Assembly (NCBI GenBank): GCA_041745115.1
Contig: JBGTJM010000016.1
Span: forward strand, 1 to 32,339
Source of the DNA: Thermomicrobiales bacterium
GTDB lineage: Bacteria > Chloroflexota > Chloroflexia > Thermomicrobiales > UBA6265
Direction: 5' to 3'
Length of the DNA stretch: 32,339 nt
Position 1 is the stretch's first letter; every line of letters starts with the position of its first letter. Below, piece by piece: positions 8,848 to 26,176 of this stretch. The notes beneath the pieces were generated by a model. The model saw only the letters and a program-made list of their open reading frames with translations. It did no database searches and was not told where the DNA came from. The translations under genes were made by a program, and so were the position numbers.

Positions 8848-8920
8848 CTGATTTGAGACTCCCGGTTTCATAGAGGGCCAGTAGCGTTCAACGGTATCCT
8901 GCCAGATTTGCGAGAAGTGG

Positions 8921-9703
8921 TCACTCTTCGGAGTCGCGTGATCCCCAGAACAAACCCATCCTTGCAGTCGTTCCTCCATCGACAAAAAGCGTATCGCCGG
9001 TGATCCAGCTAGCGTCGTTCGACGCCAGGAACGCGGTTGCTTTTGCAATGTCTTCGGGTGTGCCAACGCGCCCGAGCGGCACCATCGAGTCCCCACGCTC
9101 ACGGGTGTACCCCGGGAGGTCGGCATACCGAGGAACTTCTACTACACCGGGGCCAATCGCATTGACCCGAATCCTCCGTGGGGCCAGCTCGATTGCCAGC
9201 GAGCGGGTGAACATCACGACGGCCCCCTTGGTACCTGCGTATGCAGCGTGATTGGGGAAGCCACCGGCACCGTGGACCGAGGTGATATTGACGATGCTGC
9301 CGGTGCCTTCCGGCAAGTACCGCAATGCCCGCTGGGCGCAAAAGAAGTACCCCTTGATGTTGAGATCGAACATTTCGTCGTAGAGCTCTTCTGTCGTTTC
9401 CTCGAACGGCTGGGAACGCGTCACTCCGGCGTTGTTGACCAGAATGTCCAATCCGCCCAATCGCTCTGAGGCTTCATCGACCAGAGTCGTACAGCCATCG
9501 ACGTTCCGCAGATCTGACTGGATTGCATATGCCCTCCCGCCGCTGCTGCTGATGTCGCCAACCAGATGTTCAGCGCCGTCCTTGCTTCCGCCATAGTGAA
9601 CCGCGACCGCCGCCCCACAACGCGCAAGCTCTCGGGCAATGCCCTGCCCGATCCCTACTCCCGCCCCGGTTACCAAAGCCTTTCGACCTGTCAGATCAGG
9701 CAT
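8921..9703 (-). CDS. Classical SDR-family oxidoreductase (FabG / glucose-1-dehydrogenase-like)
   Basis: Motifs TGAGVGIGQG, NNAG and S...YAGTK (Ser-Tyr-Lys triad) are present, with PG downstream. Confidence 0.85.
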   Translation of the reverse strand: MPDLTGRKALVTGAGVGIGQGIARELARCGAAVAVHYGGSKDGAEHLVGDISSSGGRAYAIQSDLRNVDGCTTLVDEASERLGGLDILVNNAGVTRSQPFEETTEELYDEMFDLNIKGYFFCAQRALRYLPEGTGSIVNITSVHGAGGFPNHAAYAGTKGAVVMFTRSLAIELAPRRIRVNAIGPGVVEVPRYADLPGYTRERGDSMVPLGRVGTPEDIAKATAFLASNDASWITGDTLFVDGGTTARMGLFWGSRDSEE

Positions 9704-10236: not shown

Positions 10237-10986
10237 ATGCGCCTTGAGTCCGAACCAGTCAGACAGCGAGTGGTCAATCTCGATCCGGTGGTTCCTTTGC
10301 CACCGGCACTCCTGCCTTGCCGTACCCCAATTGAGGGGCGGTGGGCCACCGTCGAGCCCCTCGATGCGAGGAAGCACGGATCAGACCTCTACGACGCCTC
10401 GCATGATCGCCCTGAGGCCGAGCAGATCTGGGCTTATCTTCCCTATGGCCCATTTCCTTCGCTCGATTCCTATGTGGGATGGCTCAGATCATGCTCCGCG
10501 GCCCCTGACCCGCTGTTCTTTGCGATTCGAGATCACGCATCTGGCATGGCAAGTGGTCTGGCCAGCCTGATGTCCATCGAACCACTTCATGGGTCGATAG
10601 AGATCGGTCATATCATGTTTGGGCTACCACTCCAGAATACCGTCGCGGGTACTGAAGGTTTGTATCTTCTGATGAAACACGCCATGGATGACCTTGGAAA
10701 CCGCCGGCTGGAATGGAAATGCGACGCCGGGAATGAGCCGTCCAGACGCGCCGCTCGACGCCTGGGTTTTGCATTCGAAGGCGTCTTCTCTCAGCACCGG
10801 ATTGTCAAAGACCGCAACCGTGACACAGCCTGGTATTCGATCATCGACAGCGAGTGGACCACGATACAGGCAAGCTTCGAGCAATGGCTCGACCAGGAAA
10901 ACTTCGACGCCAATGGCAAACAGAAGAGCTCGTTGAGCTCCATGACCCAAGCGGATCGAGACCGCCGGAGTCAGTCAACCAGTTGA
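10237..10986 (+). CDS. GNAT-family N-acetyltransferase (RimJ/RimL-like, Acetyltransf_3 type)
   Basis: SD AGGAGGAG lies upstream of ATG 10237. Diagnostic segments: GSIEIGHIMFGLPLQNTVAGTEGLYLLMKHAMDDLGNRRLEWKCDAGNEPSRRAARRLGFAFEGVF. Confidence 0.8.
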   Translation: MRLESEPVRQRVVNLDPVVPLPPALLPCRTPIEGRWATVEPLDARKHGSDLYDASHDRPEAEQIWAYLPYGPFPSLDSYVGWLRSCSAAPDPLFFAIRDHASGMASGLASLMSIEPLHGSIEIGHIMFGLPLQNTVAGTEGLYLLMKHAMDDLGNRRLEWKCDAGNEPSRRAARRLGFAFEGVFSQHRIVKDRNRDTAWYSIIDSEWTTIQASFEQWLDQENFDANGKQKSSLSSMTQADRDRRSQSTS

Positions 10987-11047: not shown

Positions 11048-11983
11048 TTACCGGCCGAGATACTCCAGCGATCTGGCTGACCACTCGAGGCCCTTCATCG
11101 TATTGGGATCGAGCATGATCTGTATTTCTGACACTCCCGCCTCGGCGTACGTCAGCATGAACTCGGCCAGTTCCTCGGGGGTCCGTGCCTTCAATCCCGG
11201 CTTGTCCTCGCTCGGTCTTCCTGTCGCATCCGGAGTGTCGACCAGCAGAGTGACGGATCGCTCGACGGTCGCGGGATCGCGCCCTGCCAGCTCCATCGCG
11301 GTGTCGACCTTCTGCCGGTGATCTTCGAGCTCGGCGAGCGATTGCACGGCCCACGCGTTCCAGCTGTCGCCGAAGCGTGCGAGCGTTTGCAGCATTCGAG
11401 GAGCGCTCGATCCGATCATGATTGGAAGGCCATCTGGTCGAGGACCCCTGGGCCGCAATTCGCAGTCTCGCGCAGCGTAAAAGCGGCCCGCGAAATCAAC
11501 ATGGCCCTTGTGCAGAAGTCCGTGAATGATCTCCACAGCTTCCTCAAAACGACTGACGCGGTAGTCATACGGAAATCCAAATGCGGAGTAGTCTGACTCA
11601 AGCCAACCTGCTCCGAGACCCAGAGTCAGACGCCCGCCGCTAATCTCATCCACGGTTTCGGCCATTTTTGCGAGCAGAGCAGGGTTGCGGTAGCCCGTGC
11701 AACACACGACTGGACCGATGTCGACTCTCTCCGTGATCGCCGCCAGCGCAGCGAGGTTCGACCAGCACTCCCACGGGCCCTGAGACGGTTTCCCTTCAAA
11801 TCGATACAGGAGGTGGTCGAACACCCACACCGAATCGAATCCGGCGCGTTCAGCAGCAACCGCCATCTCGGAAATGTCAGACCATCGCGGTGTATCGCCT
11901 CCCATTTCCCACTCAGTGTCGGGCAAGATCACACCGACTCGAAGCTGTTTCCGATGTTCTGGCTCAGGCGTTCCCTCGCGCAT
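11048..11983 (-). CDS. Luciferase-like monooxygenase (LLM) class flavin/F420-dependent oxidoreductase
   Basis: The TIM-barrel LLM pattern is present: LRVGVILP...AERAGFDSVWVFDHL...GGRLTLGLGAGW. The cofactor (FMN or F420) cannot be decided by eye. Confidence 0.8.
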   Translation of the reverse strand: MREGTPEPEHRKQLRVGVILPDTEWEMGGDTPRWSDISEMAVAAERAGFDSVWVFDHLLYRFEGKPSQGPWECWSNLAALAAITERVDIGPVVCCTGYRNPALLAKMAETVDEISGGRLTLGLGAGWLESDYSAFGFPYDYRVSRFEEAVEIIHGLLHKGHVDFAGRFYAARDCELRPRGPRPDGLPIMIGSSAPRMLQTLARFGDSWNAWAVQSLAELEDHRQKVDTAMELAGRDPATVERSVTLLVDTPDATGRPSEDKPGLKARTPEELAEFMLTYAEAGVSEIQIMLDPNTMKGLEWSARSLEYLGR

Positions 11984-12099: not shown

Positions 12100-12108
12100 T
12101 GTTACAAT
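12100..12108 (+). promoter_or_regulatory. Candidate extended -10 element (TGTTACAAT) for the sugar-uptake operon
   Basis: A TGnTACAAT motif lies 86 nt upstream of ATG 12194 in the divergent intergenic region. I could not find a good -35. A 5-6-5 inverted repeat TTCTGaatcgaCAGAA lies downstream of it. Confidence 0.3.
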
Positions 12109-12193
12109 GCTGTTATACGCAAGAAGTGTGCACAACGCCCTTCTGAATCGACAGAATCGGTATGTGCAACACAAACCAAAAAGGAGTTCGTGC

Positions 12194-13627
12194 ATGATGA
12201 GTGACAGAGTCGTCACGCAGCTTGTCGACGAGGCGACCCGGCGACATTACAGTCGGCGTCAGATCATTCAGCGCGGCGTAGCGCTTGGACTGGCTGCACC
12301 CGCAATTGCTACGGCAGTGTCTGCCGTTCGCCCAATGCCGACATTTGCGCAGGACGCATCCAATCCACTCGGAGTGGATCCTGCAGCGCCGCTCGATGTG
12401 GTGATATTCAAGGGTGGCTTCGGTGACAACTATGCGTTGAACGTCAACGAGATGTACAACCAGCTGTATCCCGATGCAGAGATTACGTACATCGGCACGC
12501 AGCGGCTCGGGCCTCAGTTCCAGCCGCGATTCGTCGCAGGCAACCCTCCCGACGTGATGGATAACTCCGGCGCCGAAAACCTGCCGATCGCCACGCTCGT
12601 CGCTGAAGGCCAGCTTGCTGATCTTGCAGACCTGATGACAGCGCCAGCTTATGACACCGAAGGCGCGACATTTGTCGATACGCTCGTGGCAGGATCCCAG
12701 GGGAATGGCGTCTACGATGGCACTCAGAATGTGCTGCTGTATGCGCTTACGGTCTACGGCATCTGGTACAACCAGGCATGGATGGAGGAACAGGGCTACA
12801 CCTATCCAACCTCCTGGACCGAGATGCTGAATCTCTGTGAGGAGATCAAAGCCCAGGGAATTGCTCCATGGACCTATCAGGGGCAATATCCACAGTACAT
12901 GCGGTTGCTGTTCGATCAGATGGTGCCGAAGCACGGCGGTATCGAAGCGCTCGTTGCGCTCGACAACCTCGAAGACGGTGCCTGGTTGTCTGAGCCGGTG
13001 TTTGAGGCTGCTTCGGCTCTTCAGGCGCTCTACGAAAACGGTTACATCATGGAAGGCACTGAGGCTCTGTCGCACACTGAGTCCCAGGCAGCCTGGTTGC
13101 AGGGCGACGCAATTTTCCTTCCGTGCGGAACATGGCTCGAGAATGAAATGACCGATCTGATTCCGGAAGGATTCACGATGCTGGTCAACCCATCTCCGTC
13201 GCTGGAAGGCGACACGATTCCGTTCGAGGGTATCGGGGCATGGGCCGGCGAAAACTTCCACGTCTCCGAGCAAGGCGCAAACGTCCAGGGTGGAAAAGAG
13301 TGGTTGCGTCTGCTCTTCTCCCAGGAGGGCGCCCGTTTCTTCTCGGAGGACACTAAAGCCCTGACCGTTGTCAATGGCGCTGCCGAGGGACTCGATCTTG
13401 GTGCGTCGTTCCAGTCAGCCCAGGATGCAATCGCCAACGCTGGAGACAACACCTTTGCTTCCCGGTACGCTGACTGGTACCCAGAACTGAGCACCGACTC
13501 GAGAGATCAGTTTGGACTGCTCATGACTGGCCAGATAACCGTCGAGGAGTTCCAGCAGAACGTCCAGGATTCGGCCGATGCTGTAAAGGCGGACGATTCG
13601 ATTCCGAAGTACACACGGGAGATCTAG
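12194..13627 (+). CDS. Carbohydrate ABC transporter substrate-binding protein, NgcE-like (GlcNAc/chitobiose type), Tat signal
   Basis: SD AAGGAG lies 7 nt upstream of ATG 12194. The twin-arginine signal is SRRQIIQRGVALGLAAPAIATAV. Mature-protein segments FKGGFGDNYA...FVAGNPPDVMDNSGAENL...LVAEGQLADLADLM resemble the NgcE family as I remember it. Confidence 0.8.
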   Translation: MMSDRVVTQLVDEATRRHYSRRQIIQRGVALGLAAPAIATAVSAVRPMPTFAQDASNPLGVDPAAPLDVVIFKGGFGDNYALNVNEMYNQLYPDAEITYIGTQRLGPQFQPRFVAGNPPDVMDNSGAENLPIATLVAEGQLADLADLMTAPAYDTEGATFVDTLVAGSQGNGVYDGTQNVLLYALTVYGIWYNQAWMEEQGYTYPTSWTEMLNLCEEIKAQGIAPWTYQGQYPQYMRLLFDQMVPKHGGIEALVALDNLEDGAWLSEPVFEAASALQALYENGYIMEGTEALSHTESQAAWLQGDAIFLPCGTWLENEMTDLIPEGFTMLVNPSPSLEGDTIPFEGIGAWAGENFHVSEQGANVQGGKEWLRLLFSQEGARFFSEDTKALTVVNGAAEGLDLGASFQSAQDAIANAGDNTFASRYADWYPELSTDSRDQFGLLMTGQITVEEFQQNVQDSADAVKADDSIPKYTREI

Positions 13628-13670
13628 GCGTTTCTCGATTCTGCCTTTTCAGGCAGGATCAACGCTGGAT

Positions 13671-13698
13671 TCGGGACGCCGACTTGTCGGCGTCCCGA
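13671..13698 (+). promoter_or_regulatory. Intercistronic GC-rich stem-loop after the binding-protein gene
   Basis: TCGGGACGCCGA-cttg-TCGGCGTCCCGA is a perfect 12-bp stem. No U-tract follows it. A weaker hairpin CTGCC-ttttca-GGCAG lies at 13641-13656. Confidence 0.7.
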
Positions 13699-13755
13699 TT
13701 CGTACCACCGCTGCGATGCTGTTGGACTCGTCAGGAAACGTGAACGGAACCGCGT

Positions 13756-14643
13756 ATGAATCACGGAAAGTACCGACTGATCATTCCGTTCCTGGCACCT
13801 GCCCTCATCCTCTACACCGTGTTCGTTCTCTACCCATATGCCAGTGCCGTAAGAAACTCTTTCTATTTGTGGCGTGGTGTTAGCGCAAATAAGACCTTCA
13901 TTGGTTTAGACAACTATCGAAAACTCTGGGACGACGACAATTTCCGCACCGCTCTGACCCACAACGGGCAGATGCTGATCGTGCTGCCACTCTTTACGAT
14001 CAGCATTGCGATGTTGTTTGCCACGCTCTTCGTACAGGGCGGCAAGGGGGTGCGAGGCGCGGGGTTCTACCGGGTCGTGTACTTCTTCCCGCAAGTGATG
14101 TCTGTCGTTATCGTCGGCGTTCTCTGGCAATACATCTACAACCCCAACAGCGGCATTCTGAATGAAGCACTGCGAGCGGTTGGGCTTGGCAGTCTTGCCA
14201 GATCCTGGCTGGGCGATGCGAGCTACGCGCTGTGGGCTGTTGCAGCGGTTGTCATCTGGCAGTCGGTTGGTTTTTACATGGTGCTCTTCGTCGCCGGAAT
14301 GCAATCGATTCCGTTTGATTTCTACGAAGCGGCTCGGCTCGACGGCGCCAGCAGGTTCGCGCAATACAAGGACATCACAGTCCCGCTGATGTGGGAGAAC
14401 ATCCGAGTCGCCGTGATCTATATCGCCATCGCTGCTCTCGACCTGTTCACCATCGTCCAGGTCATGACGGAAGGCAAGCCAAACAGATCGTCAGACGTGG
14501 TTGCCAGATTCATGTACGAGCAGGCCTTCACCAATAGCCAGTTCGGCTACGCATCTGCGATTGGGGTGGTGCTCCTCATTCTGACGTTCATACTGGCCAT
14601 GATCATGCTCGTCCTTTCTCGCCGCGACCGGCTCGAGTTTTAG
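13756..14643 (+). CDS. Carbohydrate ABC transporter permease (MalF/UgpA-like, CUT1)
   Basis: The protein is a six-TM permease with an EAA-type loop (YEAARLDGASRFAQYKDITVPL). Confidence 0.85.
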   Translation: MNHGKYRLIIPFLAPALILYTVFVLYPYASAVRNSFYLWRGVSANKTFIGLDNYRKLWDDDNFRTALTHNGQMLIVLPLFTISIAMLFATLFVQGGKGVRGAGFYRVVYFFPQVMSVVIVGVLWQYIYNPNSGILNEALRAVGLGSLARSWLGDASYALWAVAAVVIWQSVGFYMVLFVAGMQSIPFDFYEAARLDGASRFAQYKDITVPLMWENIRVAVIYIAIAALDLFTIVQVMTEGKPNRSSDVVARFMYEQAFTNSQFGYASAIGVVLLILTFILAMIMLVLSRRDRLEF

Positions 14644-14653
14644 GAGACTGTCG

Positions 14654-15574
14654 ATGAGCGCACCGCCTGTATTCACACCAGGACCAGATGCTCCGACGCC
14701 CGGCAACCCTGAAACGTTCACGGAAAAGCGTCGGAATCTTCTCTCGGGCGAGAGCATCTTTGGCGGCGTTTCTCAGGTTGTTCTGGTCATTTGGGCGCTG
14801 ATGGTGATCTTGCCATTTGCCTGGATGGTCATGACCTCGTTCAAGACGGACCCAGAGATCATCTTTAGTCCGTGGAGCTTTCCCGACTCACTGCAATGGA
14901 ATAACTTCCAGAGAGCGTGGGACGAAGCGCGAATTGGCACGTATTTCAAGAACACGATCATCGTTGTCAGTTTCTCGGTGTTTTTCACGCTGCTGGTTTC
15001 TTCAATGACCGCCTACGTTCTGGCGCGTTTTGAGTTTCCCGGTTCCCGCTGGCTGTTCTACCTGTTTATGGCCGGCCTGATGTTTCCAGTGTTTCTGGCT
15101 CTGGTGCCGCTATTCTTCGTCGTCAAAGATCTCGGAATGCTGGGGACGTATCGCGGACTGATCCTCGTCTACGTCGCATATTCTCTGCCGTTCTCCGTGT
15201 TCTTCCTGACGGGATTCTTCAAGACCCTGCCCAGCGAGCTTGCTGAGGCTGCGATCGTCGATGGCGCTTCTCACTACCGGGTGTTTTTCGGCATCATGCT
15301 GCCGCTTGCCAAGCCTGGGCTGCTTGCGATCGGAATCTTCAATGTGCTTGGGCAGTGGAATCAGTTCATTCTGCCCCTCGTACTTAATCCCGACCCCAAT
15401 AACTACCTGCTCACTCAGGGGCTTGCGTTTCTGGCAATCCAGCAGGGATACCAGAATGACTACAGCGCGCTCTTCGCCGCCCTGACTATCACGATGATTC
15501 CGATCCTCACCGTCTACATCATCTTCCAGCGCAGGTTGGAGGCGGGTCTCACTGCTGGCGCCCTGAAGGGATGA
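14654..15574 (+). CDS. Carbohydrate ABC transporter permease (MalG/UgpE-like, CUT1)
   Basis: SD AGGAG lies upstream of ATG 14654. The EAA loop is ELAEAAIVDGASHYRVFFGIMLPL. Confidence 0.85.
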   Translation: MSAPPVFTPGPDAPTPGNPETFTEKRRNLLSGESIFGGVSQVVLVIWALMVILPFAWMVMTSFKTDPEIIFSPWSFPDSLQWNNFQRAWDEARIGTYFKNTIIVVSFSVFFTLLVSSMTAYVLARFEFPGSRWLFYLFMAGLMFPVFLALVPLFFVVKDLGMLGTYRGLILVYVAYSLPFSVFFLTGFFKTLPSELAEAAIVDGASHYRVFFGIMLPLAKPGLLAIGIFNVLGQWNQFILPLVLNPDPNNYLLTQGLAFLAIQQGYQNDYSALFAALTITMIPILTVYIIFQRRLEAGLTAGALKG

Positions 15575-16368
15575 GCGACGCGTCGAATGGGACTGCGGAT
15601 CCATCCAACGTTCCATGGTCTGGCAAGAGGGCTCTGGTCACCGGCAGCACGCGTGGGCTTGGTCGAACCATTGCCGAACACCTCGCTCAGCGAGGGGTTA
15701 CCCTCGTGCTCAGCGGTCGCACTGAGCAGGAAGTACACAAATCCGTTTCCGAACTGTCGTCCTTTGGTGTGCAAATCACTGGCATTCCAGCAGATTTGAG
15801 CAACACCTCTGAGGCCCACCGGCTTGCGGAGGCCGCGATAGACGCAGTTGGCAAACTCGACATTCTCGTCAACAATGCCGGAATGAGCATTCGATCCGAC
15901 TTCTGGAGTGTTTCTGACAAGGATTGGGATCATCAGGTTAACGTTAATTTTCGATCACCATTCATCTTGGCGCAGTATGCAGCCAGAAACATGATCGATT
16001 TGCAAACAAGAGGCCGCATTGTCAATGTCGGCACAATTGGTGCTCGGCGGTGCCATTCGAATGCCTGCGTCTACGACATGGCCAAGGGGGGAGTCGAAGT
16101 GATGACCCGCAACATGGCGTATGAACTTGGTCCTCATGGCATAGCAGTCAATTGCGTGGTTCCAGGAGCAATTCCGATACGCCCTGGATCTTCATTTGAT
16201 GCCAACTCCAACCAGCGATATCTCCGGCATGTTCCGATCGGTCGTTTTGGGACAGCGGACGATATCGCAGCGGCGGTCATGTATTTCTGCGATCCTTCCA
16301 CGGAATTCACCACAGGGCAGTCACTCCTCGTCGATGGTGGACACGCGACCTGGTTACCAGTCTTCTAG
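15571..16368 (+). CDS. SDR-family oxidoreductase (operon-encoded)
   Basis: The start overlaps the permease stop as ATGA. Motifs TGSTRGLG, NNAG and YDMAK (YxxxK) are present. The residue 13 positions before the Tyr is Thr (NVGT), not the usual Ser. Confidence 0.85.
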   Translation: MSDASNGTADPSNVPWSGKRALVTGSTRGLGRTIAEHLAQRGVTLVLSGRTEQEVHKSVSELSSFGVQITGIPADLSNTSEAHRLAEAAIDAVGKLDILVNNAGMSIRSDFWSVSDKDWDHQVNVNFRSPFILAQYAARNMIDLQTRGRIVNVGTIGARRCHSNACVYDMAKGGVEVMTRNMAYELGPHGIAVNCVVPGAIPIRPGSSFDANSNQRYLRHVPIGRFGTADDIAAAVMYFCDPSTEFTTGQSLLVDGGHATWLPVF

Positions 16369-16377
16369 ATCGAGTTT

Positions 16378-17370
16378 GTGATTTTGCAGCGGAGGGAGAA
16401 CACCATCGTTACCGCGACAATCCGAGGAAGAGCAGCGGACCATATCTCCAGTGTGGAAAAGCCACATGATTTTGACGAATTCTGGAGGGATTTGCTGAAA
16501 CGAGCGAGCGAAACGCCCCTCGACCCCACGATCGAACCAGTAACACTTCGCTCGAATGATCATGTCGAAACCTACGAAATCCATTACAACAGTATCGATG
16601 GCGTGAGGATCGCCGGTTGGTACTGTCGCCCGACCGAGCAACATATCGCTCCACCGTACCCAGCGTTGCTGCTCGTCCCTGGCTATATCTCTGAACCGAC
16701 GCTCCCGAAAAGCTGGGCAAAGCTCGGTTACGCGGCCGTGGGGGTTGCTCCGCGGGGCAAGCTGCGATCCAACGGTCAGTTCAACCCTGGTTATCCCGGC
16801 TTACTCACCCATAACATCGTGGACCGGGAGACCTACAGCTATCGGGGGTTCTACATTGATGCGTGTCGTGCCGTCGATTTTGTGCAGTCCCGGCCCGAGG
16901 TTGATCAGACGCGCATCGGGGTGCACGGAAGCAGCCAGGGCGGCGCACTAACCATCACCACTGCAGCGCTTCGCAACGATGCCATCACCTGCGGAGCGGC
17001 AGGAGCCCCATACCTTGTCGGCTTCATGGACGCTGCGTCCCTGACGCACTCGAATCCGTATGAGGAGATGAATAATTACTTGCGACTCTATCCTGAACGC
17101 GAGCAGGCGATGCGGGAGACCGTCGCCTATTTCGATGGCGTCAACTTTGCACCGATGATCAAGGCGCCAATGCTCGTCTACGCGGGCCTTGGTGACGATG
17201 TCTGTCCACCAGAGACCGCATTCGATCTGGTGAATGCAATGCCAGGACCGGTCGAGTTTCTCACCTATCCCCGATGTGCTCACGACGCCGGAAACTACTG
17301 GTGCATGCCAAGGGTCGAAGCCTTTCTCGCAGACCACCTGAAACCCGCCACCCGTGAGGTTTCGAGATGA
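16378..17370 (+). CDS. CE7-family acetyl esterase (acetylxylan esterase / cephalosporin-C deacetylase, AXE1)
   Basis: DFDEFW lies near the N-terminus. The nucleophile elbow is GVHGSSQGG, with Ser186 encoded by agc at 16933-16935. GLGDDVCPP supplies the acid and CAHDAG the His. The exact start is uncertain (GTG 16378, or in-frame ATC 16405 preceded by GGAGGGAG). Confidence 0.85.
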   Translation: MILQRRENTIVTATIRGRAADHISSVEKPHDFDEFWRDLLKRASETPLDPTIEPVTLRSNDHVETYEIHYNSIDGVRIAGWYCRPTEQHIAPPYPALLLVPGYISEPTLPKSWAKLGYAAVGVAPRGKLRSNGQFNPGYPGLLTHNIVDRETYSYRGFYIDACRAVDFVQSRPEVDQTRIGVHGSSQGGALTITTAALRNDAITCGAAGAPYLVGFMDAASLTHSNPYEEMNNYLRLYPEREQAMRETVAYFDGVNFAPMIKAPMLVYAGLGDDVCPPETAFDLVNAMPGPVEFLTYPRCAHDAGNYWCMPRVEAFLADHLKPATREVSR

Positions 17371-18269
17371 TCAGTACGTCAAGGCCAGCTGATTTTGATG
17401 ACTTCTGGAACGCTGTCGACGACGAGCTTGCCAGGTTCGATCCTGCACCCGAACTTGAAGTGTCGCACCTCAGATCGACTGAGTTCTCGACTACTTATGA
17501 CGTCCGGCTAACCAGTGTCGGCCCGTATCGGATCTTTGCCTACCTGAGTGTGCCGAAGGGGAACGGGCCGTTTCCGGCATTGTTCAATGCTCCCCGCTAC
17601 GGAAGTGTCAATAACCCGCCGCACTACGACGATCGTCAGCGTTATGTGGTGATGACCCTGATGCATCGCGGTCAAAGGCTCGCAGATCAACCCTATGCCG
17701 CGGCGTATCCGGGGCTGCTGACAGATGGAATCGAGGACCCGCAGTCGTACATCTACCGTGGCATCGTCGCCGATTGTTTGCGGGGAGCTGAATTTCTGCT
17801 TTCACGCCCTGAGGTGCAGGGCCAGCCGGCAGGTATCGTTGGTGACGACCTGGCGATCCTGACCGCGTCTCGTCGACAAGGGTTCACCGCGCTTCATGTC
17901 AGCGGATTGATGTTCTACCGGATGCTGGAGGCGGCTCGAAGAACTGGCTCGTATCCCCTCGAAGAAGTCAACGATCATCTGGCGTTTTTTCCGGAATCCG
18001 CATCTCGGGTTGCAACGACGGTCAGCTACTTTGATCCGCTTCACCACGCCTCCCGCGTAAGTGCCCACACGCTTCTCGATCTCGGGGATCCGGGAACGCT
18101 CAGTGGCCCGGAGTTCGTCGAGCCGTTGTGCCGTGCGTTTGCAGGTGAAGTCGACCAGTATGTGCTGAGCCACGAAGGCGGCACCGATCGCGACGCGACC
18201 GACGCCTGGCTGGCAGCGAAACTCGGCAGTGTGCCTCGACCGAGACTCTGGGCGGAGGCGATGGGATGA
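17367..18269 (+). CDS. CE7/AXE1-like paralog with Ser->Asp at the nucleophile elbow (pseudoenzyme or Asp-nucleophile hydrolase)
   Basis: The start overlaps the upstream CE7 stop as ATGA. The N-terminus ADFDDFW and the segment YRGIVADCLRGAEFLLSRPEV align with the upstream paralog. The elbow reads GIVGDDLAI, with D161 encoded by gac at 17847-17849. RGQ and HE motifs are present. Confidence 0.8.
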   Translation: MISTSRPADFDDFWNAVDDELARFDPAPELEVSHLRSTEFSTTYDVRLTSVGPYRIFAYLSVPKGNGPFPALFNAPRYGSVNNPPHYDDRQRYVVMTLMHRGQRLADQPYAAAYPGLLTDGIEDPQSYIYRGIVADCLRGAEFLLSRPEVQGQPAGIVGDDLAILTASRRQGFTALHVSGLMFYRMLEAARRTGSYPLEEVNDHLAFFPESASRVATTVSYFDPLHHASRVSAHTLLDLGDPGTLSGPEFVEPLCRAFAGEVDQYVLSHEGGTDRDATDAWLAAKLGSVPRPRLWAEAMG

Positions 18270-19384
18270 CCAGCATTTACGAAGAACTCGATATCCGGCC
18301 CGTTATCAACGCCTCGGCCACACTCACAAAACTCGGTGGTTCCCTGATGCCGAAACCGGCGGTCGAAGCGATGAGCCAGGCAGCTGCCCAGTTCACAGAT
18401 CTCTTCGAGCTCCAGGAAAAGGCCGGCCGACGGATCGCCGAGCTCACTCACAACGAAGCGGCCTACATTTCATCAGGAGCGGCGGCCGGTATTGCGCTGT
18501 CCGTCGCTTCCTGCATTGCAGGCACAGATCCGGAGCTCCAGCAGGATTTTCCATATCTTGAGAATGCTACAAAGTGCGAAGTGATTGTTTACCGCGGTCA
18601 GCGCAATGGATATGACTACGCGGCCCGGCAGACTGGCGCTCGACTCATCGAAATCGAACCAGACGGAGATCAGCTCGAGATGAGCCTGTCAGATCGCACG
18701 GCGTGTGTGCTGTTTTTCGCGGGCTCGCATTATGCAGAAGAGGCACTGCCGCTCGAGGAGGTTGTGTCGATTGCTCATACCATGAGCGTGCCGGTGATCG
18801 TCGACGCTGCAGCGCAGATTCCACCGATTTCGAATCTCTGGCATTTCACCCGCGAAGCGGGGGCGGATGCAGCCATCTTCAGCGGTGGCAAGGGCCTGCG
18901 CGGACCTCAGTCCAGTGGAATCGTGGTAGGTACGCAAACGATCATCGATGGAATCAGGCCCAACGCGGCGCCAAATCAGAGTCTCGGCAGGCCAATGAAG
19001 GTCGGCAAAGAAGAGATCGCCGGGTTGCTGGCAGCTCTCGAATGGTCACTCCAGCAGGATGAGCCCGCGGTCCTCAAGTCGTATGAGGATCGCGTCCAGT
19101 TCTGGATTGACGGCCTTGCCGGGATTCCGGCAGTGACCGCGGAGCGGCGGTTCCCGAGCGAAGCAGGACAGCCGCATGGACGCACGGTCGTCCATTTCAG
19201 CGACGCCTCAGGCATCGGACGAGATGCCGTCGTCGAAGCGCTGTGGAACCGGAACCCCCGCATCGCTGTCAGTCCGGTGGACGAAGACGCGATTGCGCTT
19301 AATCCGCAAACCATAGAAGATGGCGAAGAACAGATCGTGCTGGATGCGCTCATCGAAGTTCTGGGCGCTGCAGCTAATGGATGA
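18266..19384 (+). CDS. SelA-fold (DgaE-like) PLP-dependent enzyme, putative amino-sugar-acid ammonia-lyase
   Basis: The start overlaps the upstream stop as ATGA. The N-terminus reads IYEELDIRPVINASATLTKLGGSLMP...EAAYISSGAAAGIALSVA. FSGGKGLRGPQSSGIVVG carries the PLP-lysine motif of the SelA/DgaE family. At 372 aa it is too short to include the SelA N-terminal tRNA-binding domain. Confidence 0.7.
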   Translation: MTSIYEELDIRPVINASATLTKLGGSLMPKPAVEAMSQAAAQFTDLFELQEKAGRRIAELTHNEAAYISSGAAAGIALSVASCIAGTDPELQQDFPYLENATKCEVIVYRGQRNGYDYAARQTGARLIEIEPDGDQLEMSLSDRTACVLFFAGSHYAEEALPLEEVVSIAHTMSVPVIVDAAAQIPPISNLWHFTREAGADAAIFSGGKGLRGPQSSGIVVGTQTIIDGIRPNAAPNQSLGRPMKVGKEEIAGLLAALEWSLQQDEPAVLKSYEDRVQFWIDGLAGIPAVTAERRFPSEAGQPHGRTVVHFSDASGIGRDAVVEALWNRNPRIAVSPVDEDAIALNPQTIEDGEEQIVLDALIEVLGAAANG

Positions 19385-19394
19385 AAGGAAGACC

Positions 19395-19853
19395 ATGTCC
19401 CCCGAAGAGAAATTGAAGCAACTTGGCTACGAGCTGAAACCGCGGGAATCGTTTGCTCCGGCGATGGCAATTGGAAAGATCACCGGCAATTTGCTCTATC
19501 TCTCCGGCGCCACGCCATCTGACAAAGACGGTAAACCATGGGTTGGCAGGGTAGGGGAGACGTACACCGTCGAAGAAGGTTACGAGGCCGCTCGGCTTAC
19601 CGCCGTTGCTCAGCTCGAAATGGCCTGGACCGTTCTTGGCGACCTGGGCCGGATCAAACAGGTTGTGAAGGTCCTGGGCATGGTCAACTGCGTGCCAGGA
19701 TTCCCCGACACCCCCGCCGTGATGCATGGCTTTTCCGATCTCTACCTGGAGGTCCTGGGTGAGAAAGGCAAACATGCCCGCTCGGCGGTAGGTCTGCAAG
19801 CTCTGCCTGGCAACACACCGATCGAGGTAGAGACTATCTTCGAGATCGACTGA
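19395..19853 (+). CDS. RidA/YjgF/L-PSP family reactive enamine-imine deaminase
   Basis: SD AAAGGAAG lies upstream of ATG 19395. The sequence GNLLYLSGATP...ARSAVGLQALPGNTPIEVETIFEI is typical of the family. The longer listed ORF from 19320 overlaps the previous gene. Confidence 0.8.
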   Translation: MSPEEKLKQLGYELKPRESFAPAMAIGKITGNLLYLSGATPSDKDGKPWVGRVGETYTVEEGYEAARLTAVAQLEMAWTVLGDLGRIKQVVKVLGMVNCVPGFPDTPAVMHGFSDLYLEVLGEKGKHARSAVGLQALPGNTPIEVETIFEID

Positions 19854-20680: not shown

Positions 20681-21712
20681 TCACGCCAGGTCCCTGGCAC
20701 GCTGGAGGGAGCTGGTCACGACGTTCCAGGTCGCGTTGATGTCTTCCGACCAGAGTTTCGACATTGGTTCGCAGGCCCGGAAGCTCCAGATGCCAATGTC
20801 GTTCATCCCTTCATCCAGCGCAATCTCGATCGCATCCGCGATTTCGTGCTCGCTCCCTTTCGGGAATCCATACCCTTGCAACCAGAACTGGCTACGCAGT
20901 CCGAATTGTTCGCAGAGGCTTCGCACCGCAATGGCGTTCGGCCGAACGTAGGATTCCATAGGCACGGTTTCCCCCGCCCGCCAATACGGATCTGTGCCAA
21001 AGACGTCAAGTCCCGTAATCGCGCCAAACGGTTGCCAGTCGGTCACGCCGACAAGGTCGAACGTGATTCCGTGCGGTAAGAGGCAGAGACTGGTCGTAAC
21101 GTATTTATGTTTTGCGTATCTGATCAAATCGGATGTGAGGCGCAGCACAGCATCGTCGCGAAATGCGCGCACCTCGTCGTCGAGGCTATGTGGCATGTCA
21201 TGCCCAAACTGGTCTCGAAAGAGCTCCCGGCACACGCGACACCGGCAGCTCCAGCGCCTGGCCGGATCTCCCTTCGGCACGCCGATGTACCACAAGTCGC
21301 CCGGGTACCAGTGCGGTTCATCGAAAAAGAGGACATCAGCCCCTATGTCAATGGCGGCATCGATCCACTCTTTCATAAACGACAAGAGCACCGGCTGATT
21401 GAGACAGGTCACGCCAATGGATGAGCCATCGGCCAGCACCTGACAGGAGCTCATCTCCCACGCAACGAACTTGCTCAGGGCTTCGCCGCCGAAAACACCG
21501 GCGACGCCCCAGGGATCGAGATGAACCTCAAGACCAAGGTCCTTCGATATGCGGACGATCTCCCGCATCGATTCGATGCCCCAGAAGAGGTCGCTTTCGG
21601 TGAAGCAGTGCACAACATAATCAAAGCCGACCAAGGAAATCTCTTCCATGTCCGACCGAACGTGCCGCAGCGTTCGGTTGCCAAAGTAGGAAACTCCGGA
21701 TCGAATTTGCAA
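20681..21712 (-). CDS. Hypothetical glycoside-hydrolase-like TIM-barrel protein with a CxCxxC cluster
   Basis: Only the C-terminal ~340 codons of the listed 666-aa ORF look coding (GVSYFGNR..., FFDEPHW, WSCRCRVCRELF, FGTDPYW). The upstream part lies antisense to the 21839-23110 gene. The start is either TTG 21712 or ATG 21649. Confidence 0.6.
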   Translation of the reverse strand: MQIRSGVSYFGNRTLRHVRSDMEEISLVGFDYVVHCFTESDLFWGIESMREIVRISKDLGLEVHLDPWGVAGVFGGEALSKFVAWEMSSCQVLADGSSIGVTCLNQPVLLSFMKEWIDAAIDIGADVLFFDEPHWYPGDLWYIGVPKGDPARRWSCRCRVCRELFRDQFGHDMPHSLDDEVRAFRDDAVLRLTSDLIRYAKHKYVTTSLCLLPHGITFDLVGVTDWQPFGAITGLDVFGTDPYWRAGETVPMESYVRPNAIAVRSLCEQFGLRSQFWLQGYGFPKGSEHEIADAIEIALDEGMNDIGIWSFRACEPMSKLWSEDINATWNVVTSSLQRARDLA

Positions 21713-21838
21713 GTCACTAGTCCCTGACTGTTCGCGCCCTTGATGAACCTCATGGTGGCATCCCTGTATTGTACGAGGTGCATGGTGTTGCGCGCGGCGC
21801 GGTGACGATGCCGTATCGTTCTCCCTGGGAGATTGGTC

Positions 21839-23110
21839 ATGGTCCGAATTGGTGCCTACGCCGCACTGTTGCTCCTGGTCTTGAGTCTCCTCGCTCCTCA
21901 ATCGCTGGCTTCTGCCGCTCAACAGCCACCCATCCTGGCGCACGAGCCCGGACTGCCATTGGTCGCCACTACGTTTGCGACGGGGCTGAACTTTCCGACC
22001 GGAATGGTCGAGCTGCCAGACGGCTCTCTTATTGTTGGAACGAGCAATCCAACCGGCGGGAGTTTCTTTTCGTCTACTGGTGAGCTTGTTCGAGTTGTCG
22101 ATCTTGATGGCGACGGAATCGCCGATGGGGAACCTCAAGTCGTTGCAACTGGGCTGGCCGGCGCCGTGACTGCGGTCGCTATGCAAGGCAATCTCGTATT
22201 TGTGACCTCGGTCGAGTCGCGCAAGGAGCGCATCCAGATACTTCGGGGTGGGGGAGATTGGTTGGGACCCTACGATCAGGTGAACGAACTGATCTTCAGT
22301 TTCGCGGGGTTCGCTCACCAGTCCTATGGCCTTGCGACGAGGATCTCGCCGGACGATCCTGACGTGATCGAGCTGTATTTCAACATCGGAGCGCGGGGCA
22401 ACGATACCGGCGGTGGAGCCGTGCAAGTAGGAGGAGCAGTGTCGGCACGGTTGATGGATTCGAGTATCCACATGGTGCCTGTCACTGATGATGGTGAACA
22501 CGTGGAGATTGCCGAACCCGTACAGATCGCCACCGGCCTTCGAAACGCCATGGGGTTTGGCTTCCATCCGGAAAGCGGCGACCTCTGGATCACCGACAAT
22601 GGAATTGATGGATTCGAAGATGTCTGGTCTGCGTACAGTGCCGATGAGCTGAACGTGATTCCGGCCGAACAGATTGGCCAATCAGTGTTCGACTTTGGTT
22701 TTCCTCACTCATATACGCTTTATTCCACCGGAGAAGTCATTGGATCCGGCGGCGCCCAACCAGTCGTTGCATTCGTTCCACAAGGCGGAAACGAGAGCGA
22801 AGGTGCCGCCTCACTTGCGTTTACGCCCGCGTCATTCCCGGATGGGTTCAACTCAGGGGTATTCGTCGGTTTCCACGGACAGTACGATCTGTCGGGATCC
22901 GAAAACGAAGAAAACCCGTTGCTCCACATTGATCTGAAGACCCTGGAAGTCACCACCATCGTATCGGTCGATGCGCCCGGAATCGGACACCTCGATGGAC
23001 TTCTGTCGACGAACGATGCAGTCTATGTCGCGGACCTCTGCGCCGGATCTTCACTTGCGAGTGCTGACCCGTGCGGCACGATATTCCGGATCGTTCCGGC
23101 TCGGGGCTGA
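21839..23110 (+). CDS. Secreted PQQ-dependent sugar (glucose/sorbosone) dehydrogenase-like beta-propeller
   Basis: The signal peptide is MVRIGAYAALLLLVLSLLAPQSLASA. Family-like segments are FATGLNFPTGMVELPDGSLIVGT and ATGLRNAMGFGFHPESGDLWITDNGIDG...DELNVI. Confidence 0.75.
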   Translation: MVRIGAYAALLLLVLSLLAPQSLASAAQQPPILAHEPGLPLVATTFATGLNFPTGMVELPDGSLIVGTSNPTGGSFFSSTGELVRVVDLDGDGIADGEPQVVATGLAGAVTAVAMQGNLVFVTSVESRKERIQILRGGGDWLGPYDQVNELIFSFAGFAHQSYGLATRISPDDPDVIELYFNIGARGNDTGGGAVQVGGAVSARLMDSSIHMVPVTDDGEHVEIAEPVQIATGLRNAMGFGFHPESGDLWITDNGIDGFEDVWSAYSADELNVIPAEQIGQSVFDFGFPHSYTLYSTGEVIGSGGAQPVVAFVPQGGNESEGAASLAFTPASFPDGFNSGVFVGFHGQYDLSGSENEENPLLHIDLKTLEVTTIVSVDAPGIGHLDGLLSTNDAVYVADLCAGSSLASADPCGTIFRIVPARG

Positions 23111-24440: not shown

Positions 24441-25082
24441 CTAGCGGCCAACAGCTCCAGCTCTTGCTGCAGGAGTCAAGATCTCCAACCCACGGAAGAT
24501 AAGGTCTACCGAAAGCGCCAGTATCGTGATCGCAACGGTACCTGCCAGTATCATCGATGGGTTGTTTCGGGAGATACCGCTGAAAAGTAATGTGCCCAGT
24601 CCTCCAGCGTTGATCCAGGCGGTAATGCTTGCGAGGCTAATCGTGCTGACGGATGCAATTCGCAGACCTGCAATCAGCACAGGGAGTGCCAGGGGAAGCC
24701 GGACCTTCAGAAATCGCTGCGACCCTGTCATGCCTACGCCTGCTGCGGCTTCCATGAGAAGTGGATCGACGCCAGTAAGACCCGAGGAGATATTGCGCAC
24801 CAGTGCCAGCTGGGCGTACGCCGCCAGCACGACCAGGGCAGGGTCTCTGCCCAAACCGAGGCTTGGAATGAGAAGAGCGAGAAACGCCAGACTCGGAATC
24901 GTATAGATTGCGCCGAGTGAAACAAGCACCGGCAGTCGCAAACGCTGCCAGCTGGCGGCAGCGATTCCAATCGGAATTGCAATGATCAATGCGAGTCCGA
25001 GGGCAAGAAAGCTCAGCTCGATGTGCTCCCATGTCAACTCCAGGACTCGCCGCCAGTTCTCAAACAGATAGTCGAAACTCAT
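24441..25082 (-). CDS. Glycine betaine/choline-type (OpuC/OpuB-like) ABC transporter permease
   Basis: ATG 25082 overlaps the ATPase stop as ATGA. The 213-aa permease has the loop MEAAAGVGMTGSQRFLKVRLPLALP. Confidence 0.85.
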   Translation of the reverse strand: MSFDYLFENWRRVLELTWEHIELSFLALGLALIIAIPIGIAAASWQRLRLPVLVSLGAIYTIPSLAFLALLIPSLGLGRDPALVVLAAYAQLALVRNISSGLTGVDPLLMEAAAGVGMTGSQRFLKVRLPLALPVLIAGLRIASVSTISLASITAWINAGGLGTLLFSGISRNNPSMILAGTVAITILALSVDLIFRGLEILTPAARAGAVGR

Positions 25083-26086
25083 GGTCGCTCAGCTCGTTCT
25101 CTTGCAACGGCCGCGACCTCCCAGATCGTTTCGATATCCACGGTGCCATCTGCCTGGCCGTCCTCTCCCTGGACTGCAACGGCGGTCTCGCCTGTGCGCA
25201 GAAAGTGATCGAGAACCTGACGCAGATCCGTGTCGGCACTCACAACGTGATCGATGCTGCCTGATTCCTCTCCTCTTCGCATCACCGAAGTAACGTCGAT
25301 CAGGCCGAGGCGGCGCAGCGCATCTCCGCCTCCTACGAGGTCGCTTACGAATGCATCGGCCGGATTCGTGACGATGTCAAGCGGTCTTCCCGACTGCACA
25401 ATCTCACCTGCTCGCATAACTACGATCAGATCGGCCAATCGCACCGCTTCATCGATATCGTGAGTGACGAAGAGAATGGTCTGCCCCAATTGCCGGTGAA
25501 TTCTCAGAAGCTCGCCCTGGAGGCGGCTCCGCGTGATAGCGTCGAGCGCCCCAAACGGTTCATCCATCAGCATCATCGACGGATTGACCGCCAGCGCCCG
25601 CGCCAGGCCCACACGTTGCTGTTGTCCTCCGGAAAGCTGAGTGGGATAGCGGTGCCGGTATTCGGACGGAGGCAGACCGATCAGGTCGAGCAACTCATCC
25701 ACTCGGTGATTGATCTCCTGCTTTTTCCACCCCAGCAGCTTCGGCACTACAGAGATGTTGTCTGCAACGCGCATGTGTGGGAAGAGGCCGGTTTGCTGAA
25801 TTACATAGCCAATCCGCCGGCGGAGCTGGGATGCCCGCACCGATTGAATGTCCTCGCCGTCCAGCAGTATTCGGCCATCCGAAGGCTCGATCAGGCGGTT
25901 CACCATTTTGAGCAGCGTGGTCTTCCCGCATCCCGAGGGACCGAGCAACACGACAAACGCACCGGGCTCGACGTCAAGTGACACTTGATTGACCGATGCG
26001 ATCTCTGCCCCGGGGTAGTGCTTTGACACCCGATCAAAGGTGATCGAACTTCCAGGAGCCTGGCTTTGTCGACCGTCGGAATCGAT
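25079..26086 (-). CDS. Compatible-solute ABC transporter ATP-binding protein with C-terminal CBS pair (OpuCA-like)
   Basis: Walker A GPSGCGKTT, signature LSGGQQQRV, Walker B MLMDEPF and a CBS-like C-terminus are present. I extended the 5' end to ATC 26086 because the conserved first strand ITFDRVSKHY lies upstream of the listed GTG 26029. SD GAAGGAG lies 7 nt before the ATC. Confidence 0.8.
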   Translation of the reverse strand: MDSDGRQSQAPGSSITFDRVSKHYPGAEIASVNQVSLDVEPGAFVVLLGPSGCGKTTLLKMVNRLIEPSDGRILLDGEDIQSVRASQLRRRIGYVIQQTGLFPHMRVADNISVVPKLLGWKKQEINHRVDELLDLIGLPPSEYRHRYPTQLSGGQQQRVGLARALAVNPSMMLMDEPFGALDAITRSRLQGELLRIHRQLGQTILFVTHDIDEAVRLADLIVVMRAGEIVQSGRPLDIVTNPADAFVSDLVGGGDALRRLGLIDVTSVMRRGEESGSIDHVVSADTDLRQVLDHFLRTGETAVAVQGEDGQADGTVDIETIWEVAAVARERAERP

Positions 26087-26125
26087 GGTCTTGCTCCTTC
26101 TCGGCTGCAGCGAGCGAACGTATCA

Positions 26126-26152
26126 GACAGGCGCGGAGTTACCGCGCCTGTC
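26126..26152 (-). promoter_or_regulatory. Intercistronic perfect stem-loop between the binding-protein and ATPase genes
   Basis: GACAGGCGCGG-taact-CCGCGCCTGTC (minus strand) is an 11-bp perfect stem with a 5-nt loop. No U-tract follows. Confidence 0.75.
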
Positions 26153-26176
26153 GATTGCTTCGAGAACAGATTGCCC

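Follow-up and report, generated by a model that had tools for sequence, protein, structure and literature searches.

The 32,339-nucleotide contig JBGTJM010000016.1 from a Thermomicrobiales bacterium (GCA_041745115.1; Chloroflexota), referred to here as the window, carries two overlapping genes, A and B, both coding for proteins of the CE7 esterase family (Table 1). Comparison of their sequences with those of their relatives makes it fairly probable that the two products form an obligate CE7-type hetero-oligomer, with catalysis assigned to A and the role of a non-canonical, probably non-catalytic partner to B. The CE7 esterases are textbook self-compartmentalising homo-hexameric serine esterases with industrial uses in cephalosporin deacetylation and perhydrolysis. 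Retention of an inactive paralog as the partner of an active one is known from other families but appears to be new for CE7; if an obligate heteromeric branch exists, duplication has also led, within this family, to a division into active and inactive subunits.

The A reading frame has two alternative start codons, GTG at 16378 and TTG at 16384, and the choice between them is uncertain. Its product falls within CE7 by its match to the Pfam profile PF05448 (AXE1; 211 bits, cut-off 21), with a second match to Peptidase_S9 (52 bits), and its best matches among solved structures are the CE7 deacetylases 1l7a and 1vlq (E ~1e-50). Ser186, Asp273 and His302 align with the Ser-Asp-His triad of these two enzymes, Asp273 standing opposite the residue that we take to be the catalytic Asp274 of TM0077 (1vlq). 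In an alignment of 78 A orthologs, R126-G127-K128, S186, Q187, D273, D274 and H302 are each 100% conserved, and the residue following His302 is Asp in 66, His in eight and Glu in four. The CE7 signature is RGQ / GxSxG / HE (PMC9606172), and A does not have all of it, with RGK in 78/78 orthologs and HD in 66/78; by its profile match and motifs, A is a member of a divergent CE7 subfamily. An NCBIfam scan of A gave only sub-threshold matches, the best of them to a quorum-quenching lactonase (29 bits against a cut-off of 400), which we judged uninformative. A preliminary description of this DNA had reported complementary subsets of the signature in the two proteins. Neither has the full RGQ/GxSQG/HE set, and both reading frames, their coordinates, their ATGA overlap and every motif listed for A and B, including the Ser186 and Asp161 codons, are as read from the DNA.

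Protein B is 31% identical to A across 269 residues (E = 5e-35) and matches PF05448 with 66 bits, above the AXE1 gathering threshold, over profile positions 19–271 of 321; in a scan of the window proteins it matched no other Pfam or NCBIfam family. It keeps the RGQ motif and the Tyr78 column, which is the oxyanion-hole Tyr in CE7. The GxSQG elbow with its catalytic Ser is absent, and the elbow is four residues shorter than in A and in the solved CE7 enzymes. Gap placement at this point differs between pairwise alignments: with 1vlq, GGSQ is deleted, and with 1l7a, Asp161 stands opposite Ser181. When a profile of 30 B-family sequences is aligned with one of 31 A-family sequences using hhalign, the SSQG of A lies opposite a four-column gap, and D160-D161-L-A of B is aligned with G-A-L-T of A at the start of helix C. 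These alignments indicate that the elbow of B arose through a four-residue deletion that removed SSQG and not through a Ser-to-Asp substitution, and Asp161 would have come to lie where the strand meets helix C through excision of the original elbow and the loss of one turn from that helix. In the same alignment the column of the catalytic D273 of A corresponds to G243 in B, with D241 two residues upstream of that column. A Ser elsewhere at the elbow of B, named in the preliminary description as a finding that would speak against its reading, is not seen in any of 81 B orthologs, nor in the profile alignment, which has a gap there.

Structure prediction places B in the same fold. The AlphaFold2 (AF2) model of B has a mean predicted local distance difference test score (pLDDT) of 87.5 and a predicted template modelling score (pTM) of 0.89, and Foldseek searches with it return the CE7 structures 1ods, 1l7a, 3fvr and 1vlq as best matches (TM 0.78–0.80, E ~1e-19 to 1e-20, ~23% identity). 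Every match among the solved structures, in both the PDB sequence searches and the Foldseek searches, is a single CE7 protein with an intact GxSQG, and none is a Ser-less CE7. The model has a strand at residues 155–159, D160 in coil and a helix at 161–169; across the AF2 models the Asp lies just ahead of helix C or at its beginning, and the helix is one turn shorter.

The B family is large and conserved. A search of 5.8 billion proteins returned 2405 matches to B, and the top 120 are all about 300 amino acids long and 59–79% identical to it, from Thermomicrobiales, other Chloroflexota and Roseiflexaceae; wherever the motif scan found the elbow in these top matches it reads GDD[LM], mostly GDDLA. 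With each species represented by a single genome, relatives of B were detected in at least 287 genomes of Chloroflexota, Actinomycetota and Dormibacterota, and the locus statistics given below are from the best 80 loci, which include Thermomicrobiales, Chloroflexia, Roseiflexaceae, Caldilineaceae, Dormibacterota, Acidimicrobiia, Kribbella, Nonomuraea and one Mycobacteriaceae metagenome-assembled genome (MAG). Orthologs are 51–79% identical across phyla. Among the 81 aligned B orthologs, the Asp161 column is acidic throughout (D in 80, E in one), residue 160 is D in 63, N in 16 and G in two, R101 and G102 are present in all 81, and Q103 in 79. The putative catalytic positions are more variable. 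His269 is H in 61/81, N in ten, F in six, and R, Q or G in the rest, Glu270 is kept in 51/81 and Asp241 in 56/81, and the acid loop is deleted in the actinobacterial orthologs, so that neither a conserved catalytic acid nor a conserved His is found. Across the 50%-identity cluster representatives of the whole B superfamily, the four-residue deletion is shared and most elbows read x-[D/E]-L-A; the His column is occupied by H, F, N, D, G, E, R, Q or S, and the acid loop varies or is missing. Among the 30 close relatives of the window sequence, however, His269-Glu270 is invariant, Asp241 is kept in at least 90%, and about 70 columns are invariant, including the stretches HRGQRLAD and YPGLLT. We saw no pattern relating the HD/HE/HH variation of A to the loss of the His in B across the loci compared.

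The account of the B active site in the preliminary description therefore holds in part. An Asp is found at the elbow by topology in the AF2 models, but through a deletion that had been missed; the nucleophile spacing is kept in the window and its close relatives but not beyond; and the acid and His positions, said to be retained, are so in close relatives but not family-wide, with D241 off the acid column.

Ratios of nonsynonymous to synonymous substitution (dN/dS), calculated by the Nei-Gojobori method for unsaturated ortholog pairs, are 0.09–0.32 for B (median ~0.12) and 0.02–0.21 for A (median ~0.075), and B is under purifying selection. With its catalytic residues lost and its sequence constrained, B shows two properties expected of a pseudoenzyme partner. 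We note that a second class of Ser-less CE7 proteins is also present (P0169, P0173, P0177, P0189 and P0198); these have a full-length elbow reading G-A-G-L-G-G, G-D-G-I-G-G or similar, with Gly, Leu or Ile at the expected Ser position.

A and B are found together in both directions of search. The preliminary description had proposed surveying whether Ser-less homologs form a clade that always sits beside a canonical CE7 gene, and had named solitary, relic-like B homologs with elevated dN/dS as evidence to the contrary. The Ser-less homologs do form a large conserved clade. Of the 80 genome loci, 77 include DNA upstream of B, and all 77, from Chloroflexota, Actinomycetota and Dormibacterota, have a Ser-containing A-type gene immediately before B on the same strand, so that none of them has a solitary B. 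The gap between the two genes varies from an overlap of about 22 nucleotides to a spacing of about 350 nucleotides, and is mostly less than 30 nucleotides. In the reciprocal test, metagenome contigs were searched with an A-family profile and the patterns APRGKLRSN and G[VL][HQ]G[SG]SQGG, with at least 400 nucleotides of downstream room required, and B follows A in 66/69 loci; of the other three, one has B 1.8 kb downstream and two have only 714 and 880 nucleotides of room. Together with the fusions described below, these counts amount to obligate two-way co-occurrence. One Chloroflexia locus has two tandem A-B pairs (L036:3846-5642 and L036:6979-8870), of which the upstream pair is only ~50% identical to the window proteins.

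The two genes are also fused in some genomes. An exhaustive profile search found six A-B fusions among the 50%-identity representatives, proteins of 573–627 amino acids that contain both halves, and a further search gave about 35 fusion clusters at 90% identity (560–670 amino acids), always with A followed by B. In all of the ~35 clusters the N-terminal half carries RGK and GxSQGG, and the C-terminal half carries RGQ but no GxSxG; among the 39 long proteins scanned, RGK is missing from the N-terminal half only in P0339 and P0341, neither of which is an A-B fusion. Eighteen proteins of equal length from independent assemblies, among them the 609-amino acid MFP6570265.1 of a Dehalococcoidia MAG, make up one cluster. 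Fusion WP_370961563.1 is encoded on a 10.45-Mb contig of Amycolatopsis sp. cg9 and another comes from Actinopolymorpha pittospori. That the fusions are chance open reading frames (ORFs), frameshifts or assembly artefacts was considered and rejected, since fusions of identical length were seen repeatedly, in many independent assemblies as well as in the genomes of isolates.

Elements that form subunit contacts in CE7 enzymes are present in both proteins. CE7 enzymes are doughnut-shaped homo-hexamers built as trimers of dimers, with the dimer contact formed by the beta-interface loop after the RGQ strand and further inter-subunit contacts by an N-terminal extension and a three-helix insertion (PMC6209228). 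The N-terminal PxDFDxFW extension, the YPGxxT loop and the PYxEIN helical insertion are kept in both A and B, and the post-RGQ loops of the two are equal in length and shorter than that of TM0077. The interface was probed by AF2 on the natural fusion P0122, modelled as a single chain with a 70-row alignment; the model has a pLDDT of 92.6 (91.6–92.6 over five models) and a pTM of 0.93, and since P0122 consists of two equal domains, we infer that their interface is confidently placed in the prediction. In its A half a strand runs to G173, with S174 in coil and then a 12-residue helix, and in its B half a strand runs to T479, with G480-N481-D482 in coil and then an eight-residue helix. The loop of B at residues ~101–128 (RGQRLAD...YPGLLT) is invariant in sequence yet is the least confident part of the monomer model (pLDDT 51–59); in the fusion model the equivalent loop has a pLDDT of 73–75.

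The genomic setting of the pair is an operon-like array (Table 1). The stop of the second permease gene overlaps the start of the short-chain dehydrogenase/reductase (SDR) gene by four nucleotides (15571–15574), A overlaps B and B overlaps the DgaE-like gene in the same way, the latter two as ATGA, and the SDR stop and the A start are ten nucleotides apart; the segment from the second permease through the DgaE-like gene looks like one translationally coupled unit. The SDR has glucose 1-dehydrogenase as its best NCBIfam match (200 bits), below the cut-off of 215. The DgaE-like protein scores below the NCBIfam cut-offs (TIGR01437, 188 bits against 385.3; NF047797, 149 against 600) and aligns over its full length with 7lc0, with a Lys aligned at the SGGK/SGAK motif; by these comparisons it is a DgaE homolog and not an equivalog. 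The RidA start is probably the ATG at 19395, because the orthologs begin near M(S/T)PE(E/Q)KL. Neither a kinase nor an aldolase gene was recognised in the window operon.

Table 1. Features of genes A and B and of the adjoining genes in the 32,339-nucleotide window.
Feature	Position	Strand	Remarks
ABC substrate-binding protein, NgcE-type	12107-13627	+	TIGR03851 (N-acetylglucosamine/diacetylchitobiose binding protein), 497 bits, above the equivalog cut-off of 399.65
ABC permeases	13756-14643 and 14654-15574	+	PF00528; transporter in total 12107-15574
SDR oxidoreductase	15571-16368	+	PF13561, 186 bits; immediately upstream of A
ORF A	16378-17370	+	330 amino acids, GTG start; RGK-type CE7/AXE1 serine hydrolase
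A R126-G127-K128	16753-16761	+	Site of RGQ in canonical CE7; read directly
A Ser186 codon (AGC)	16933-16935	+	Nucleophile in GSSQG (context GVHGSSQGG); aligns with catalytic Ser of 1l7a and 1vlq
A Asp273 codon	17194-17196	+	Catalytic acid in GDDVCPP; aligns with Asp of the 1vlq (TM0077) loop GLMDNICPP
A His302-Asp303	17281-17286	+	HD in place of CE7 HE
A stop/B start overlap (ATGA)	17367-17370	+	Read from sequence
ORF B	17367-18269	+	300 amino acids; Ser-less CE7 paralog, presumed non-catalytic partner subunit
B RGQ (R101-Q103) and loop, residues ~101-128	17667-17750	+	Matches CE7 beta-interface (dimer-interface) loop; RGQ codons 17667-17675
B elbow G159-D160-D161-L162-A163	17841-17855	+	Asp161 codon GAC at 17847-17849; four residues shorter than A
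B Asp241 in LGDPG	18087-18089	+	Acid proposed in the preliminary description
B His269-Glu270 (HE)	18171-18176	+	His269 aligns with A His302
DgaE-family PLP-dependent ammonia-lyase homolog	18266-19384	+	Start overlaps B stop (ATGA, 18266-18269)
RidA/YjgF-family protein	19320-19853	+	PF14588, 58 bits; longest ORF overlaps end of DgaE-like gene by 65 nucleotides

Neighbourhoods were compared by tblastn with the window's own proteins; greedy ORF calling in these high-GC loci gave spurious antisense ORFs. The DgaE-like gene, coding for a pyridoxal phosphate (PLP)-dependent enzyme, is the only frequent conserved neighbour of the A-B pair, adjoining it in 62/73 informative loci (downstream in 51 and upstream in 11). 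Other neighbours vary from locus to locus and include RidA (13/80 genome loci), the SDR ortholog (10/80), F420-type luciferase-like monooxygenase (LLM) oxidoreductases, CUT1-type and Dpp-type transporters, GNAT proteins, amidohydrolases and peptidases. In Actinopolymorpha a DgaE-like gene and a RidA gene lie behind the A-B fusion gene, the same module as in the window. In four Thermomicrobiales loci (e.g. L019:5637-6848 and L082/L083:7715-8899) a protein of ~394–403 amino acids without a Pfam family is encoded between the SDR and A; it is absent from the window.

These observations suggest a scheme for how the pair may have arisen and may act. After duplication, an ancestral CE7 homodimer would have become an A:B heterodimer and the catalytic machinery of B would have been lost later, which is the simplest reading. 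B most likely pairs with A through the contacts of the CE7 homodimer, that is, the post-RGQ beta-interface loop, the N-terminal extension and the helical insertion, giving A:B dimers and possibly an A3B3 ring. A, with its complete Ser186-Asp273-His302 triad, would carry out hydrolysis, and B, without the SSQG elbow and without a family-wide His or acid, most likely has no canonical hydrolytic activity; the near-invariant Asp/Glu at its elbow may be kept for a non-nucleophilic role, either structural or in binding a cationic or polar group of the substrate. With low confidence, and because A, B and the DgaE-like gene are coupled behind an N-acetylglucosamine (GlcNAc)/chitobiose-type transporter and an SDR, we suggest that the A/B complex frees a 2-amino-3-hydroxy acid. 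It would do so by acting on an amino sugar taken up as, or converted to, a lactone, ester or amide, for example to give glucosaminate from an oxidised or acetylated amino sugar. The DgaE-like lyase would next deaminate this product, and RidA would act on the enamine or imine. The sequence features, the pairing counts, the fusions, purifying selection and the confident fusion model are what the analysis shows; the physical complex, the lack of catalysis in B, and the substrate and pathway are what we infer.

Routes of similar logic are known or predicted elsewhere. One is the oxidative chitin pathway, whose deacetylase is reportedly OngB, of the D-aminoacylase family and not a CE7 pair. In this pathway GlcNAc1A is deacetylated and deaminated (PMC9537276), which resembles the A-B operon in freeing an amino-aldonic acid and then deaminating it to a 2-keto-3-deoxy acid, but the deacetylase and deaminase appearing there are unrelated to the CE7 pair. 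The route predicted in chitin-degrading haloarchaea runs from a glucose dehydrogenase through glucosaminate to a DgaE homolog, and its cluster includes a RutC/RidA-family gene (PMC12343721); it likewise has release of an amino-aldonic acid followed by deamination. A more specific proposal, possible although doubtful, is that A/B is a so far undescribed kind of heteromeric alpha/beta-hydrolase, a CE7 ring or dimer made of an active and a deletion-remodelled subunit, in which the B carboxylate takes part directly in substrate recognition or catalysis (e.g. by binding the ammonium of an amino-sugar lactone, ester or amide), and that it is the entry enzyme of an uncharacterised amino-sugar-acid or D-amino-acid-like route (A/B to DgaE-like lyase to RidA) widespread in soil Chloroflexota and Actinomycetota.

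Several observations weigh against the view of B as an inactive partner and against the pathway attached to it. B keeps features of the active-site region, namely the Tyr78 column, RGQ and the acidic elbow residue, and the window's own lineage of B keeps His269-Glu270, so that B might have a catalytic role of a non-canonical kind. Conserved adjacency and gene fusion are also seen for enzymes of consecutive steps. An adjacent DgaE-like gene is absent in 11/73 loci, the transporters are CUT1-type in some loci and Dpp/Opp-type in others, and peptidase or amidohydrolase genes are present in some; for these reasons the assignment of a substrate is weak. The retained residues are also the basis of a rival account, in which B is an independent enzyme with Asp161 as nucleophile or general acid/base, in the manner of a haloalkane dehalogenase, epoxide hydrolase or lactonase, performing the step before or after A and linked to it for channelling only. 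The acidic residue conserved in all 81 orthologs and in most of the wider B superfamily, its nucleophile-like position directly before helix C in the AF2 models, the retained Tyr78 column and RGQ, and the well-kept His, Glu and Asp241 of the window lineage would all suit such an enzyme, and a lactone in need of opening could be the product of the SDR, LLM or Gfo oxidoreductases encoded in some loci. In alpha/beta-hydrolases with Asp nucleophiles, such as haloalkane dehalogenases and epoxide hydrolases, hydrolysis of the ester intermediate depends on a conserved His, however, and the A-B loci in which B lacks the His are still intact and in several cases have a DgaE-like gene next to the pair. 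The deletion has moreover taken four elbow residues, including the Gln following the nucleophile, whose backbone NH is part of the oxyanion hole in CE7, and D241 lies outside the catalytic-acid column; nor does B match any Pfam or NCBIfam family beyond AXE1. We regard this account as unlikely, and the Asp161-nucleophile hydrolase offered in the preliminary description is disfavoured because the His column (H/N/F/R/Q/G/D/E) and the acid loop of B (variable or deleted) are not conserved. The other role offered there, that of a non-catalytic partner of A, is the one that the comparative evidence from pairing, fusion and selection strongly supports.

A further possibility is that A and B associate as proposed and B supplies part of a composite active or substrate site, with its elbow Asp or its beta-interface loop reaching into the A pocket and being needed for catalysis and specificity. 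It draws on the same pairing and fusion evidence, and the near-invariant Asp/Glu and the invariant RLAD...YPGLLT loop exceed the apparent need of a purely structural role; the pathway product is probably amino acid-like, and its ammonium could pair with a carboxylate. The beta-interface loop of CE7 also forms part of the substrate gate, although each active site in the CE7 hexamer is described as one subunit's own (PMC6209228). We give this composite site a rather small chance of being correct, and it is a refinement of the heteromer and not an alternative to it. That B is merely a decaying, functionless duplicate would fit the loss of the catalytic Ser and the weak, truncated AXE1 match, but it is refuted and has next to no chance of being true, given an intact ORF in all of those 287 or more genomes, a dN/dS of about 0.1, the ~70 invariant columns and retention of B in the fusions. 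The heteromer of an active A and a probably inactive B remains our preferred interpretation.

Compared with characterised CE7 enzymes (the cephalosporin C deacetylase/acetyl xylan esterases B. subtilis CAH, 1l7a and 1ods, and T. maritima TM0077, 1vlq), A shares the Ser-Asp-His triad and GxSQG, and both A and B share the AXE1 match and the PxDFDxFW, YPGxxT and PYxEIN elements. They differ in that those enzymes are homo-hexamers (PMC6209228), whereas here the active subunit is of the RGK/HD type and always has a Ser-less partner, encoded beside it or fused to it, and in that the A-B context is an operon with a DgaE-like deaminase and not one of xylan or cephalosporin deacetylation.

Parallels for an inactive partner are found in other families. 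Catalytically inactive paralogs are present in hetero-oligomers such as ClpR with ClpP in the Clp rings of cyanobacteria and plastids, and the inactive beta subunits of the proteasome. As in A/B, purifying selection maintains an inactive duplicate whose active paralog, belonging to a ring-forming enzyme, is always encoded along with it, but these have another fold and chemistry, and the A-B complex is a predicted one. Closer in fold are DPP6 (DPPX) and DPP10, non-enzymatic alpha/beta-hydrolases of the S9 prolyl-oligopeptidase family, related in fold to CE7, in which the catalytic Ser is replaced by Asp (DPP6) or Gly (DPP10). DPP6 thus resembles B in having an Asp at the nucleophile position of a binding partner and not of an enzyme, although in DPP6 this is a point substitution and the partner is an ion channel, whereas the B elbow has been remodelled by deletion and its proposed partner is the active paralog. 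Haloalkane dehalogenases, epoxide hydrolases and fluoroacetate dehalogenase have, like B in its AF2 models, an acidic residue at the strand/helix C junction, but these have a strictly conserved His and acid and form sequence families of their own, to which B has no match. The deletion-remodelled elbow with its conserved carboxylate is distinctive.

The literature searched yielded no paper that describes a heteromeric or pseudoenzyme CE7 or the combination of CE7 with DgaE and RidA. Both A and B are annotated publicly as 'acetylxylan esterase' or 'cephalosporin-C deacetylase', and the branch, present in hundreds of genomes of soil Chloroflexota, Actinomycetota and Dormibacterota, is probably mis-annotated. 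If A and B are indeed subunits of one enzyme, A expressed alone may be inactive or unstable, and the natural A-B fusions are ready single-chain constructs for structural work. The conserved A-B-DgaE-like-RidA module would mark an uncharacterised catabolic step, plausibly in the turnover of chitin-derived amino sugars in soils.

Other genes in the window lie outside this module. Just upstream of the transporter are genes for a GNAT acetyltransferase (10237–10986, rightwards) and an F420-dependent LLM-class oxidoreductase (11048–11983, leftwards). The latter matches TIGR03619 (176 bits, cut-off 166.9), LLM genes are present in six genome loci, and an FGD-like enzyme could supply a sugar lactone. 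A GNAT gene next to the binding-protein gene is also seen in loci L001 and L003, and the GNAT cluster is present in seven loci. Downstream, a 666-amino acid ORF (20681–22681, leftwards) has no Pfam match and is protein-like only in its C-terminal ~340 residues; it is overlapped on the opposite strand by a 425-amino acid ORF (21833–23110, rightwards) with a weak, sub-threshold match to glucose/sorbosone dehydrogenase. An ABC system of the glycine-betaine/OpuAC type (24441–27139, leftwards), comprising a permease, an ATPase and a binding protein, appears unrelated to the A-B pair. Further to the left, the longest ORFs of an acetamidase/formamidase-family gene (7948–9126) and an SDR gene (8921–9703), both transcribed leftwards, overlap by ~200 nucleotides, and one of the two starts is probably mis-assigned.

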